From a virus, in IMG/VR virus record IMGVR_UViG_3300027659_000014, positions 32,001-96,000 of that record: a stretch of 64,000 nt of DNA, one strand, 5' to 3'. Positions 29,702 to 40,615 of the stretch are shown here, one piece after another (within the stretch, counting starts at the first letter, position 1; every line of letters starts with the position of its first letter). Made by a program: the position numbers and the translations under genes. Below the pieces are notes generated by a model. The model did no database searches. It saw only the letters and a list, made by a program, of their open reading frames with translations, and was not told the origin of the DNA.

Positions 29702-29947
29702 ATGCCAACAAATATAACAATTAATAACGTTACGGGAGCACAACCATTTGATATCTATGTTTGTGATTCACCAATTACTACTTGTATTTATGTCTCAACT
29801 ATTAATACGGTTGACACCTCCAGTCCCTATTATCAGACCCTACCATATAGTTTTGATATTCCTTTAGTTTATTCAAGTTTAACTGAATTTGTTGTTAAAG
29901 TGGTTGATAATAATGATTGTATCGTTACAGATACTTTAAATATATAA
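29702..29947 (+). CDS. Small beta-rich virion-type protein (81 aa)
   Basis: TGAQPFDIYVCD...VKVVDNNDC resembles one SprB/Ig-like unit; TATTTAT 5 nt upstream. Confidence 0.7.
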   Translation: MPTNITINNVTGAQPFDIYVCDSPITTCIYVSTINTVDTSSPYYQTLPYSFDIPLVYSSLTEFVVKVVDNNDCIVTDTLNI

Positions 29948-29948
29948 T

Positions 29949-31559
29949 ATGAGTTGTAGTACAGATATTTGTGTTGTTAATTCCGGAATATATAATGATA
30001 ATTATACATTCAGTGGTCAATATGGTGGTATAGATTATTTTGAAAATTCAACCTCATCATATTACATTTTTTATTCTCAAACAGAATTAAGGTGGTGTTT
30101 ATCGTCATACATAGGGGATCCGTGTATTTTATTTGGTCCAACAAATTCCGTTGATCCATGTCCTGATTTTTATTCTGGAATAATAGTTAACGGTTTATGT
30201 CCAACCCCAACTCCTACCCCAACATTAGCTTGTGCTATTGATTTTGACGCAATGTTTGATTGTGATGTATTTGTAACTCCAACTCCAACTCCAACTAAAA
30301 CAAAAACCCCAACACCAACACCAACACCAACAGTAACTAATGTTTGTGGGGGTGTTTCTTTATCTGTTACAGGAAACACATATTCACCAACACCAACTAC
30401 AACACCAACTTTAACTCCAACACCTTCAATTCCAATTGATAGACCATGTAATTTTGATGGTATTGCCAAATTTAATAGTGTTGATGGGTTTATTGTATGT
30501 GCAACCAGTAAAAAATTTGAGGATTGTTTTACTGGTATAGAATACTATACAACACAAACATTATTTGATTCTTTAGGTAATTTATTAGTTGTTGGTGACG
30601 TTTATGGTGGAACAATAAACAGAATATCTTCATGTTTTATTTTTCAAACAATTGTAGATAACATAAGTGGTGGTGACAAAGTTGTTATTACCACAGAATA
30701 TGGACCTTCTAGTCAAGGTAGTTGTTTAAATTGTTTCCCAATTAGTAATACTCCTACATTAACACCTACTATAACACCAACCCCAACAACACCTTGTTTA
30801 TGTTTGTCATATAGAATTTCAAATATAACTGGAAATCCCAACAGTGGTGGTATAGAATTTATGAGTTGTGATAATAAAGATGTTTTATTAAGACCTGGTT
30901 CTATGGGTTGGGATGATTGGTTAAATCATGTTCTAATTATTTGTTCTAAAGATATACCGACACTTAATTCAGGATCTGCAACTATTACAAATATTGGTGA
31001 TTGTTGTAATGGAAATTGTATTCAATACTTATTATTTAATACATCCACAACAGTTCAATCATATGTTTATACAAATTTATTAGGTGTTGTTATAAACCAA
31101 ACATTAAATTCTAACACAAGTATTTTAATTAATTCATTTTCAACACCATATTCTATATATGGTGGAATAAATGTAAACCCCACAGGAAGAGATTGTTTTT
31201 CAACACCGGGATTGACTCCTACCCCAACTAATACACCAACAAAAACTCCAACGCCAACTCCAACGCCAGCTAATCTTCCTTATATAAGTAGTCTTTATTT
31301 TCCTATGAATACCGGTATTATGGTAAATATCTGCATAAATATTAATAACGATGGTGGAAGCCCAATAACACAATGTGGTGTGGTTTACAATACAACAGGA
31401 AACCCAACAACAGCAGATAATATAATTCCATATAATATTCAAATAGGGATTCAATGTCAGAATTTTATTAGACCAATACTAAACCAACCATATTATTTTA
31501 GTGCGTTTGCTACAAATTCTGTAGGAACATTTTATCGTATTTACCCAAATCCAGTATAG
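29949..31559 (+). CDS. Cys-rich, Pro-Thr-repeat putative tail fibre/decoration protein with C-terminal FN3-like domain
   Basis: Five PT-repeat linkers; C-term DGGSPITQCGVVYNTTGNPT...YYFSAFATNSVGT. Confidence 0.65.
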   Translation: MSCSTDICVVNSGIYNDNYTFSGQYGGIDYFENSTSSYYIFYSQTELRWCLSSYIGDPCILFGPTNSVDPCPDFYSGIIVNGLCPTPTPTPTLACAIDFDAMFDCDVFVTPTPTPTKTKTPTPTPTPTVTNVCGGVSLSVTGNTYSPTPTTTPTLTPTPSIPIDRPCNFDGIAKFNSVDGFIVCATSKKFEDCFTGIEYYTTQTLFDSLGNLLVVGDVYGGTINRISSCFIFQTIVDNISGGDKVVITTEYGPSSQGSCLNCFPISNTPTLTPTITPTPTTPCLCLSYRISNITGNPNSGGIEFMSCDNKDVLLRPGSMGWDDWLNHVLIICSKDIPTLNSGSATITNIGDCCNGNCIQYLLFNTSTTVQSYVYTNLLGVVINQTLNSNTSILINSFSTPYSIYGGINVNPTGRDCFSTPGLTPTPTNTPTKTPTPTPTPANLPYISSLYFPMNTGIMVNICININNDGGSPITQCGVVYNTTGNPTTADNIIPYNIQIGIQCQNFIRPILNQPYYFSAFATNSVGTFYRIYPNPV

Positions 31560-38007: not shown

Positions 38008-38068
38008 ATAACTAAAATATGGTATATGTGTAATAAGTCAATATTGTTAATTAATATAAAAACTTATA

Positions 38069-40615
38069 TTACGAATTACATCCATATGTTGCCATACAAC
38101 TATTACAAGTTGTACCAACAGGTAATAATGTACCAACAAATGATGGTGTCCCATTAAATGTATTAACTACTCGATAACATTGTCCACCAACTAAAACTAT
38201 TTGATTAATTACTGCGGATGGTAGTATTACAAACTTTTGAATCAAAGGGTCACAACAAGATACCGCAACATAAACAACTCCTGGAGTTCTTGTTGGAGTT
38301 GGACTTGGGGTTGCTTTTGGTGTTGAAGTTAATGTTTGAGTAGGTGTAGGAGTAGGTGGTGGATTTGTTGAAGTTGGTGTTTGAGTAGGAGTAGGAGTTG
38401 GTGGTGGATTTGTTGACGTTGGTGTTGGTGTTGGTGTAGGAGTAACAACATCACATTCAACACAAGAAATATCATAATTTATTATTAAATTAATTATAAC
38501 TTTTGCATCAGATAATGTATTAAATTTAGTTGGTACACAACTTTTATTAATATCTTTACAATCATTCACAATTGTTATTTTGTTTTTAACAATATCTATA
38601 TCAACTTCACCAATATCCGGATAAGTTAATAACATTAATTTTATTACATTAATCCATTCAATATCTGTTGGATAATCATAAATTCCTATTGAGTTATAAA
38701 AAAGAAATTGTTTTATTACACCATTTACACTTGTTTCAATAATAAATTCAGCACCATTAATTACGCACCCTAAATCATTGTATGTTAAATCAAAAAATCC
38801 CTCATTATACATTTGACCTATCCCTCTTCTACCATCAATTCCAGTATTAACAAAATTAGTGTCACTTATATTATAAACTTGATAATTCCCTAAAAGTGTG
38901 GTCCCCGATAAAAGAATTGTTTTACTATATGTACATCCAGAACTATCAACAACTTGTAATGTGTATGTTCCTGCACTTAAATTAGTTACTGTTGCTCCAG
39001 TTTGTGAGTTTACATTTGAACTCCAATTGTAAGTAAATGGTGGGTAACCACTACTCAAAAGAGTAGTTATTTGACCATCATTCCCATTAACAGGTTGTGT
39101 TGATAATAAATTAAAGAATACAGAATTTGATGGTCCAACATATGCTGTTGTTATTTGTGAACAACCATTTGCGTCGGTAACCGTAACATTATAAGACCCA
39201 AAAGGTAAATTATTATAAAAATTAATTGGAGATATTGCGTATCCAGTAATTTGATAAGTATATGGTAATGTACCCCCACTAGTTGTTAATATCTGTAAGG
39301 TACCATTATTTAATCCACATGTGGTATTAGTTGTAACCGCAGTTATTGTAAACAAATTAACATTTGTAACTGTTGTTGTTCCAGTATAAACACATCCTGA
39401 ATTATTATCAATCAAAATTGTATATGTGTCTGATTGTAAATTATTAAAAGTTGTGTTAGTACCAACAGTTGTTGTATTAACCGTATTTCCGGAAGAATTC
39501 AGTAACGTATAGGTAAATGTTCCCGTAGGGGATCCAGTATTAACAACTATTGTTATTGACCCATTATTACCACAATTAGAATTTGTTGTGTTAATTGATG
39601 AAATAGTAAATCCATTGGGTGTTGTTAACGAAGTTGATTGAGTATCACTACATAATCCAGCATCTTTAACAGTAACGGTTAAAATTCCTGAAGGTAAATT
39701 TTGAAATGTATATGTGTTTGAAAATGTAACTATTGTATCCCCATTAGACCCTGAAAAAAAGAATGGAGCTGTCCCACCAGTAACGGTAACTTCAACCACA
39801 CCATCACTATTAAAACAAGTACTTCCTGTTGTTAAAAAAGAAGATATTCCAATTGGTGGAACATTATTAACAGAAACACTATTAGGAACAACACATCCTG
39901 TAGAATCTGTTACGGTAACAGTATAATACCCAACTGTTAATCCAGTTGCCGTAGACCCTGTTTGTCCATCATTCCAAACATATGTATAAGGAGCAACCCC
40001 TGTTTGTCCAGTAACAAATATTTTTCCTGAACCAAAAGCAACATTACAACTTGCATCGTCAACAACATAAAACCCATAAGAAAAAGTTGTTGATGGTAAA
40101 ATTGGTACGCTCGCACTTACCCCATTACATCCTGCACCATCATCACCAACAATATAATAAGTTCCTCCCGATAAATTTGAAAAGGTTATTCCACTAGTTG
40201 GAGTTGACCCACTATTTATATACCCGTTTGTTGTTTCATAAAGCAATGCAGATCCAAACCCATAAAAAGGATTAAACCCAAATGTTATTTCTCCATTATC
40301 ATTACCACAAGTTGTATTTATTACATTTTCAACACTTATAGATGTTCCCGATGATATTGGTATGTTTAAGTATATTGGATCAAAGGGTGGATTTATACAC
40401 GAGTCTTGGATTGCCAAACTATATGTACCGGCAGACATACCACTAAAATAATAAGTTGTTGTGGATGCTGATGTTGGTAATAAACCTGTTGAGGAAATTT
40501 CATATACAGTGTAGGGTGAAGTACCACCAGTTATCTCAATGTAAATTTCTCCAACATTAGTATTAGTACAATCACCAGAGATATAAAGATTATATATTAT
40601 TTGTCCACAACTCAT
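38069..40615 (-). CDS. Multi-SprB-repeat putative tail fibre with long PT linker and Cys-rich tip
   Basis: About seven units of C..NG.I.V..TGG..PY.Y.W...L.AGTY.V.V.D..GC; PTPTPTSTNPPP repeats at about 38280-38450. Confidence 0.75.
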   Translation of the reverse strand: MSCGQIIYNLYISGDCTNTNVGEIYIEITGGTSPYTVYEISSTGLLPTSASTTTYYFSGMSAGTYSLAIQDSCINPPFDPIYLNIPISSGTSISVENVINTTCGNDNGEITFGFNPFYGFGSALLYETTNGYINSGSTPTSGITFSNLSGGTYYIVGDDGAGCNGVSASVPILPSTTFSYGFYVVDDASCNVAFGSGKIFVTGQTGVAPYTYVWNDGQTGSTATGLTVGYYTVTVTDSTGCVVPNSVSVNNVPPIGISSFLTTGSTCFNSDGVVEVTVTGGTAPFFFSGSNGDTIVTFSNTYTFQNLPSGILTVTVKDAGLCSDTQSTSLTTPNGFTISSINTTNSNCGNNGSITIVVNTGSPTGTFTYTLLNSSGNTVNTTTVGTNTTFNNLQSDTYTILIDNNSGCVYTGTTTVTNVNLFTITAVTTNTTCGLNNGTLQILTTSGGTLPYTYQITGYAISPINFYNNLPFGSYNVTVTDANGCSQITTAYVGPSNSVFFNLLSTQPVNGNDGQITTLLSSGYPPFTYNWSSNVNSQTGATVTNLSAGTYTLQVVDSSGCTYSKTILLSGTTLLGNYQVYNISDTNFVNTGIDGRRGIGQMYNEGFFDLTYNDLGCVINGAEFIIETSVNGVIKQFLFYNSIGIYDYPTDIEWINVIKLMLLTYPDIGEVDIDIVKNKITIVNDCKDINKSCVPTKFNTLSDAKVIINLIINYDISCVECDVVTPTPTPTPTSTNPPPTPTPTQTPTSTNPPPTPTPTQTLTSTPKATPSPTPTRTPGVVYVAVSCCDPLIQKFVILPSAVINQIVLVGGQCYRVVNTFNGTPSFVGTLLPVGTTCNSCMATYGCNS

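Follow-up and report, generated by a model that had tools for sequence, protein, structure and literature searches.

The DNA analysed here (the window) is a stretch of 64,000 nucleotides (nt), one strand, from the viral IMG/VR record IMGVR_UViG_3300027659_000014, a contig of 106,180 bp of which it spans bases 32001-96000. On its minus strand, at 37027..38007, lies a gene for a protein of 326 amino acids (aa) belonging to PHROG 4417 and predicted to adopt the GT-A glycosyltransferase (GT) fold, with a DxD motif at D103/D105 and conserved residues H267 and K282. The gene is set among genes for fibre-like proteins that carry threonine-rich tracts. From this arrangement, and from its recurrence in other phages, we argue below that these phages probably sugar-coat their own particles.

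The enzyme gene and its threonine-rich neighbours

A preliminary description of the locus, made from the letters of the sequence alone, had placed the enzyme gene between two genes with SprB repeats, and this is borne out by a Pfam scan of the enzyme and seven neighbours, which returned SprB repeats only and no GT family. Directly upstream in the operon is the gene for an 848-aa fibre-like protein (38069..40615, minus strand; SprB repeat E 6e-22), and directly downstream that for a 687-aa fibre-like protein (34935..36998, minus strand; SprB repeat E 1.6e-9). The same description had listed four neighbours with Pro-Thr repeats, (PT)n, with PTSTNPPP or with poly-Thr linkers, and the tracts were confirmed in all four. 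In the 848-aa protein, a linker rich in PT/PTSTNPPP (aa ~725-780, about 38279..38443) is followed by a Cys-rich domain at the C-terminus. The 687-aa protein has blocks of four and five threonines (T4 and T5; aa 223-235, about 36294..36332) plus a TTSTTT tract. The third neighbour, an 855-aa conserved protein (32344..34911, minus strand), has two linkers, found at fixed sites in an alignment of its orthologues: linker 1 (aa ~190-247, about 34171..34344) is rich in PT, and linker 2 consists of four T5-6 blocks spaced by LNPI(I/V) (aa 638-677, about 32881..33000), its LNPI(I/V)-T5 units being encoded by a 30-nt tandem repeat (32882..32988, 3.6 copies, 98% identical). The fourth is a 536-aa Cys-rich protein in divergent orientation (29949..31559, plus strand), with five (PT)n linkers and a C-terminus matching phrog_13374. 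The 848-aa and 536-aa proteins have PT linkers and no T runs. A single T4 run is present in a 1005-aa conserved protein of the same operon (40612..43629, minus strand), which served as lineage marker. Throughout the 106-kb record, open reading frames (ORFs) with at least four consecutive threonines (T4+) or at least three PT units, (PT)3+, are confined to 29949..43629.

The minus-strand run to which the enzyme gene belongs starts with the gene of a baseplate wedge subunit (54133..55968; phrog_219, E 3e-23), followed by genes for proteins of 1906, 589, 273, 390, 302 and 1005 aa, then by the 848-aa SprB protein, the enzyme, the 687-aa SprB protein, the 855-aa protein and a RuvC-like resolvase. 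With a baseplate wedge gene at the head of the run, the cluster can be assigned to the baseplate/tail-fibre module.

Conserved core and fold of the enzyme

The translation of 37027..38007 holds, in the order first reported, the motifs YFHWQ, YIPSIKP..ISRWL, HDADIIFR, SGGG, WTAEMW and ILHMAG. All six coincide with conserved positions of an alignment of 53 family members, and they are thus a true conserved core and not chance strings. Invariant or at least 90% conserved in this alignment are Y15/W18/Q19, Y76/P82, D103/D105, G179/G180/Q182, Q222/W224/M228/W229 and H267/A269/G270; F280/K282 are likewise invariant or nearly so. Within the DxD motif (H-D103-A-D105), D105 is invariant and D103 at least 90% conserved, and the DxD, His and Lys positions stay invariant, or nearly so, over 53-150 diverse members. 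The match to PHROG 4417, annotated as of 'unknown function', is full-length (E 5e-66, with residues 6-319 aligned to profile positions 3-290 of 293). An exhaustive search yielded 820 cluster representatives of the family at E<=1e-3.

The AlphaFold2 (AF2) model of the enzyme, with a predicted local distance difference test score (pLDDT) of 97.2, is a compact single GT-A domain (Rossmann-like alpha/beta/alpha) without fibre-like extension. The protein begins with its first beta-strand at residue 5 and has no N-terminal hydrophobic segment or membrane anchor. Among solved folds, the top match was glycogenin (value 15.1), followed by Skp1 alpha-galactosyltransferase (14.8), LgtC (14.2), the catalytic domain of UGGT (14.0), WbbM (13.8), GlyE (13.8), LARGE1 (13.6) and A64R, the capsid enzyme of PBCV-1 (11.3); TM-scores to the solved structures of the GT8 clan were only ~0.45. 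The close matches among predicted viral structures were limited to uncharacterised phage proteins and Orf49 of Lactobacillus phage LP65. No PDB sequence was matched by the enzyme or by the family profile (E<=10).

Longer relatives fuse the domain, usually in N-terminal position, to GT7C, to the PF11397 N-acetylglucosamine (GlcNAc)-transferase, to GT6, GT2, GT29, O-fucosyltransferase or GT25 domains, and also to sulfotransferase and methyltransferase domains; judged from domain content, this layout is the architecture of predicted multi-step glycan builders. The GT-A fold, the DxD motif and the fusions to other GT domains uphold the initial identification of the enzyme as a glycosyltransferase. 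The best reading of sequence and model together is that of a soluble, presumably DxD metal-dependent nucleotide-sugar glycosyltransferase of GT-A fold, from a putative peptide-glycosylating superfamily related to Pfam HPAT.

Relationship to HPAT and GT8

In the preliminary description the enzyme was called plant-type and likened to HPAT (hydroxyproline arabinosyltransferase; GT95, PF23452) and SERGT (GT96). GT95 and GT96 are described as related families (PMC8012813), and GT95 is predicted to be GT-A-like (PMC8476585). The PF23452 model (gathering threshold 23.9 bits) did not match the window protein even at E<=5; it found nothing in the 106-kb record and gave one match, at E 0.09, among 53 family members. 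On the other hand, PF23452 was the commonest Pfam label in the nearest named ESM-Atlas clusters, being carried by 18 of 30 (10-58% of their members).

Profile comparison with hhalign gave a more graded picture. The phage family aligned with a profile of 42 bacterial HPAT proteins over 268 columns (probability 82.4%, E 9.9e-6), that is, essentially full length, with the WQ, DxD, W..DM, H and YK motifs in register. GT8, used as a control, scored equally high (84.7%, E 6.6e-6) over 104 columns, all in the N-terminal half up to the DxD, whereas HPAT against GT8 gave a probability of 0.3% (E 0.21, 98 columns). The DxD of the family aligns with that of both profiles. As GT8 covers the N-terminal half and HPAT alone reaches from end to end, the phage family lies between the two. 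None of the 53 members matched PF01501 (GT8) at E<=5, and the family motifs H267-x-A-G and F280-x-K282 differ in spacing from the C-terminal HxxGxxKPW of GT8. Of the original label, what holds is the likeness to HPAT, through the bacterial members and the ESM-Atlas clusters; what does not is a plain assignment, with the Pfam threshold not reached, GT8 equal over half of the protein and GT8/GT24 enzymes as nearest folds. Membership of CAZy GT95/96 is unproven, the sequence comparison having been made with bacterial HPAT members only. It had also been proposed that best structural matches of GT8 type, rather than GT95/96, would speak against the idea. The best matches are indeed of GT8 type, yet this does not discriminate, because no GT95/96 structure is among the listed PDB matches.

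Enzyme and poly-Thr tails in Firmicute phages

A tblastn search (E<=1e-5) found the family in 77 GenBank phage records; most are from Firmicute phages, and Chryseobacterium phage MA9V-3 is also represented. The gene is flanked by those for the tail tube and the tail chaperone in phiFL1A and phiCTP1, and comes after the capsid gene and a small ORF in iLp84. In these three phages and in Iacchus, the adjoining capsid, tail-tube or small head proteins end in poly-Thr. We examined 80 Firmicute phage or prophage loci from IMG/VR. As raw counts, an ORF with at least five consecutive threonines (T5+) was present in 78 of the 80 loci; T5+ runs occurred in 143 of 1770 ORFs, against at most 2 for any other residue, and 134 of the 143 lie no more than 15 aa from the C-terminus. 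In 87% of the loci, such a run is present in the gene next upstream of the enzyme.

Comparison between genomes is the strongest evidence overall, and one part of it is a natural experiment offered by 27 loci that encode a tail-tube protein homologous to that of phiFL1A (65-100% identity). The protein has a poly-Thr tail in 12/12 loci with the enzyme and in 0/15 without it (Fisher p 5.8e-8), enzyme-negative loci having been examined within 4 kb of the tail-tube gene only. In the latter, the tail-tube protein stops just before the point where the tail would start. Counted by ORF, 24/187 were positive in loci with the enzyme and 0/221 in loci without. The tree of the tail-tube core requires at least 3-4 independent switches of enzyme and tail, and a well-supported sister pair differs in both.

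In one-genome-per-species data, a T5+ neighbour was found for 22/32 loci with the short, single-domain form and for 3/47 with the long fused forms (p 4e-9). Outside the Firmicute phages, the gene next upstream of the enzyme in the cultured isolate MA9V-3 contains T6-S-T6-SS-T6. The linkage to Thr-rich virion proteins in relatives, on which the first proposal depended, is therefore strong and recurs across unrelated phages.

Conservation of the tracts in the Bacteroidota jumbo-phage lineage

The CheckV completeness of the 106,180-bp record is 36%, which implies a genome near 300 kb, and relatives that are 97-100% complete measure 290-318 kb. The record codes for Hsp70/DnaK, DnaJ, a glutamine-synthetase catalytic domain, ribonucleotide reductase, two sigma-70-type factors, thioredoxins, SbcCD-like nuclease subunits, two DNA methyltransferases and a thymidylate-synthase-family enzyme. 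By gene content, this set fits the published freshwater 'moraphages', whose predicted hosts are Flavobacteriia and whose authors listed four core glycosyltransferase groups and gave them no role (PMC12619734). No GenBank phage was matched by megablast with 18 kb of the window.

In 80 relatives (58-100% identity, with flanks of +-10 kb), the conserved gene order is [302][1005][variable fibre][enzyme][variable fibre][~845][RuvC-like]. T4+ runs were found in 183 of 997 flank ORFs, the next commonest homopolymer being P with 32. In the two genes that follow downstream of the enzyme they reach frequencies of 0.53 and 0.76, and more than 7 genes away they are absent. When 28 orthologues of the 855-aa protein (58-95% identity) were aligned, the unit of linker 2 proved to be a short Pro-containing spacer plus a T5-6 block; its Thr columns are nearly invariant, while flanks and copy number (1-5) vary. 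Such constancy of the T blocks is not expected of a mere spacer, and the range of copy numbers indicates that linker length evolves by repeat expansion and contraction. In one relative, the site of the PT-rich linker holds poly-Thr instead. The AF2 model of the 855-aa protein, made from these orthologues, had a mean pLDDT of 42.9, too low for use.

In a 99% complete relative (G006, IMGVR_UViG_3300042540_001399) there is one enzyme copy, and 12 of 304 ORFs carry T or PT tracts. Six of them surround the enzyme gene; the others include the tail sheath and proteins next to a block of GT2 genes. The sheath (31451-34774, 1107 aa) bears T4 and T7 runs. In the region 271701-289922, about five GT2-domain genes are followed by a phrog_7162 glycosyltransferase and then by PT/T-tract proteins, one of 958 aa with a C-terminal peptidase domain and one of 262 aa. 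Complete relatives have, in addition, 7-8 GT2 domains as well as an NAD-dependent sugar epimerase/dehydratase, which could extend or diversify a glycan.

The earlier proposal, with its stress on Pro-Thr linkers beside Thr repeats, needs correction in one respect. What is common to the lineages is poly-Thr and neither Pro-Thr nor hydroxyproline, and the suggested search for a prolyl 4-hydroxylase (PF13640) detected none in the 106-kb record or in three 97-100% complete relatives, with control genomes matched. Since this hydroxylase is absent, the likely acceptor is Thr and not hydroxyproline.

Cellular relatives and peptide clusters

An independent pointer to peptide acceptors for the superfamily comes from the gene context of its long forms, which resembles that of ribosomally synthesized and post-translationally modified peptides (RiPPs). 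In Chitinophaga, the long forms adjoin genes for radical-SAM, LanC-like, C39-peptidase ABC exporter and HlyD proteins. On the Chitinophaga niastensis chromosome (L303:4562-12104 and L293:4403-10824), a two-domain relative of ~580 aa joins this GT domain to a GT7C-like domain, with a GT1-like gene also in the cluster; this RiPP-like cluster is a candidate glycosylated-peptide pathway. A crude filter for Thr/Ser-rich precursor peptides in the Chitinophaga clusters retained none that was convincing.

The HPAT side leads in the same direction. In a Microthrix genome, a 321-aa protein scores above the HPAT threshold, and its gene is 4 kb away from that of a 1012-aa phage-family member. The homologues of the 321-aa protein carry PF23452, many of them in fusion with PqqD. 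A Pfam-HPAT protein lies at L356:1333-2298 (minus strand; homologues P0347-P0370). By and large, the bacterial PF23452 proteins, found in Acidimicrobiia and others, measure ~285 aa, with a subgroup of ~375 aa fused to PqqD (PF05402). PqqD is a RiPP recognition element, and its fusion to bacterial HPAT proteins suggests leader-peptide-guided peptide glycosylation.

Other features of the cluster

The 202-aa RuvC-like resolvase gene (31682..32290, minus strand; phrog_159/827) stands at the end of the cluster, a position conserved in relatives. It is probably not part of the glycosylation function. As a Holliday-junction resolvase closing a hypervariable fibre cluster, it may be linked to recombination-driven fibre diversification. 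Just before the 855-aa and 687-aa genes, at a distance of a few bases, lies the sequence TATTTATA (34918..34925 and 37018..37025, minus strand). TATTTATW was considered as a possible late-promoter motif and rejected: the window has 62 sites against 52.6 expected, a count reached by 10 of 100 shuffles, hence no window-wide enrichment. Copies of it are nonetheless present right before the genes of the 687-aa and 855-aa proteins.

A probable glycosyltransferase for poly-Thr linkers

We consider it likely that the enzyme is a peptide O-glycosyltransferase whose targets are poly-Thr linkers in virion proteins. What was observed is the fold, the catalytic motifs, the kinship of the family and the way in which enzyme and poly-Thr tracts vary together across genomes; acceptor residue, donor sugar, timing and any gain for the phage belong to the inferred part. 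The enzyme would be made along with the late baseplate and fibre genes. In the cytoplasm of the infected cell, it would transfer a sugar to threonine hydroxyls in the poly-Thr blocks of the neighbouring tail-fibre proteins, and possibly to the PT linkers too, before or during assembly. Other phage glycosyltransferases may then lengthen the glycan. The linkers would thereby acquire a mucin-like coat of glycans on the surface of the virion, which might serve stiffening, protease shielding or adhesion, as first suggested.

Several points weigh against this proposal. The glycan itself is, for all these virions, a prediction from sequences and models. Many of the Firmicute loci are near-duplicates, so that the raw counts overstate independence. 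The long-form loci largely lack poly-Thr neighbours, and the association is thus a property of the short phage clade and not of the fold. PT linkers are common flexible linkers for which modification is not required. As to kinship with HPAT, the window protein falls below the Pfam threshold, the GT8 profile, whose family includes lipopolysaccharide (LPS) enzymes, does equally well on the N-terminal half, and GT8-type enzymes (GT8/GT24) are the closest among solved structures. Lastly, three relatives (L224, L225 and L226) keep a fibre cluster with T/PT tracts (proteins of 952, ~1131, 797 and 201 aa) and show no enzyme in the 20-41% of the genome that is sequenced; this sub-lineage is either a counter-example or a case of a relocated enzyme gene.

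We regard as unlikely an acceptor that is not a protein, be it a host envelope polysaccharide, LPS or teichoic acid (modified for superinfection exclusion or receptor masking) or phage DNA. The Thr-rich neighbourhood would then reflect shared late expression or the hitch-hiking of a cassette. The LPS/O-antigen enzymes LgtC and WbbM are among the nearest solved folds, the GT8 profile matches the N-terminal half, phage glycosyltransferases classically modify DNA or serotype (PMC12619734), and this phage encodes a thymidylate-synthase-family enzyme and DNA methylases. What such an acceptor leaves unexplained, however, is the gain or loss of the poly-Thr tail together with the enzyme, at least three times, on homologous tail-tube proteins, as well as the position of nearly all T5+ runs (134/143) at the C-termini of adjoining structural proteins. 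Moreover, temperate Firmicute phages of 35-40 kb put the gene between tail-tube and tail-chaperone genes and not in the lysogeny or replication modules, cellular relatives reside in peptide (RiPP-like) clusters, and the model has no membrane anchor. A role in DNA modification was judged unlikely on these same points.

The acceptor could also be another protein: the enzyme itself, primed in the manner of glycogenin, a host protein modified in the course of takeover, or a phage protein outside the virion. Poly-Thr and PT tracts would then be plain flexible or extended linkers. The top structural match, glycogenin, is self-glucosylating, PT linkers are widespread as unmodified spacers, and two of the neighbours (848 and 536 aa) have such linkers without T runs. 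Plain linkers, though, drift in composition, whereas the T5-6 blocks are nearly invariant down to 58% identity; other homopolymers are essentially absent, and enzyme and tail co-vary perfectly in the tail-tube test. These features make another protein acceptor improbable. Still less credible, to the point of being very improbable, is a catalytically dead GT-like module serving as a structural or carbohydrate-binding component of the virion. The location of the gene between fibre genes would suit such a component, as would the database record of phiFL2B gp49, which labels the matching region 'major tail protein'; against it stand the conservation of the DxD, His and Lys positions, the compact single GT-A domain and the many relatives fused to further active-looking GT domains.

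Beyond the preferred reading of the enzyme as a poly-Thr glycosyltransferase, a wider proposal can be formulated, which we hold to be possible rather than probable. Poly-Thr would be a portable, encoded 'glyco-tag', its T5-6 blocks being recognised by the single-domain enzyme on capsid, tail-tube, sheath, decoration and fibre proteins, so that phages of Bacillota, Bacteroidota and other phyla get a mucin-like coat. Bacterial RiPP glycosyltransferases and plant HPAT/SGT1 would belong to this superfamily too; the plant enzymes that glycosylate extensins and the phage system would share a prokaryotic peptide-glycosyltransferase ancestor.

Virion glycosylation alters the recognition of phages by antibodies, proteases, mucus and host receptors. 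If the proposal is true, a system of one enzyme and one tag present in hundreds of phages bears on phage-therapy pharmacology, host range and adsorption, for hosts that include lactic acid bacteria, enterococci, staphylococci, clostridia and Bacteroidota, the latter with the ~300-kb freshwater jumbo phages. It would also be a simple means of O-glycosylating tagged proteins in the cytoplasm. PHROG 4417 gains a testable function, and the plant GT95 family would be linked to prokaryotic peptide glycosyltransferases.

Comparison with known systems

To our knowledge, virion glycosylation of phages has so far been documented experimentally only for some mycobacteriophages. These are Che8, Corndog and Myrna (Freeman et al. 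2023, as cited in PMC12363180 and PMC12619734). The likeness with them lies in a phage-encoded glycosyltransferase proposed to decorate the phage's own structural proteins and, for the Firmicute members, in a presumed acceptor that is also the C-terminus of capsid and tail-tube subunits. The differences are that no mycobacteriophage is among the 77 matching phage records (at the sequence level only, E<=1e-5), that the acceptor signature of the present family is a poly-Thr tag, and that the tracts of the window are internal linkers of tail-fibre or baseplate-distal proteins in a ~300-kb phage with Flavobacteria as predicted hosts. Our literature search on this family in virion glycosylation, on HPAT in phages and on DUF7164 found no relevant paper, in agreement with the initial impression that the role of the family is undescribed.

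Plant HPAT (GT95, PF23452) and SGT1 (GT96) attach the first sugar directly to side chains, both in small peptides and in structural proteins that are repetitive and rich in Pro/Ser. The phage profile resembles them in its full-length alignment, motifs in register, with bacterial PF23452 members. It departs from them in that the plant enzymes have a type II membrane anchor and reside in the Golgi (PMC8012813), whereas the phage enzyme is anchorless and predicted to be cytoplasmic, and in that the phage encodes no prolyl hydroxylase. From the GT8 clan of retaining GT-A enzymes (glycogenin, LgtC, GlyE, Skp1 alpha-galactosyltransferase, UGGT/GT24, LARGE1) the phage enzyme is set apart by its C-terminal half, which has no GT8 alignment. 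The O-glycosylation of serine-rich repeat adhesins in the cytoplasm of Gram-positive bacteria (GtfA/B, GlyE) and that of the Chlorella virus PBCV-1 capsid (A64R) show a functional resemblance only, families and acceptors being different in both cases. What is new here is a Bacteroidota jumbo-phage lineage with tracts inside tail-fibre proteins, together with an explicit HPAT-versus-GT8 profile control and the RiPP-cluster context of the cellular relatives.

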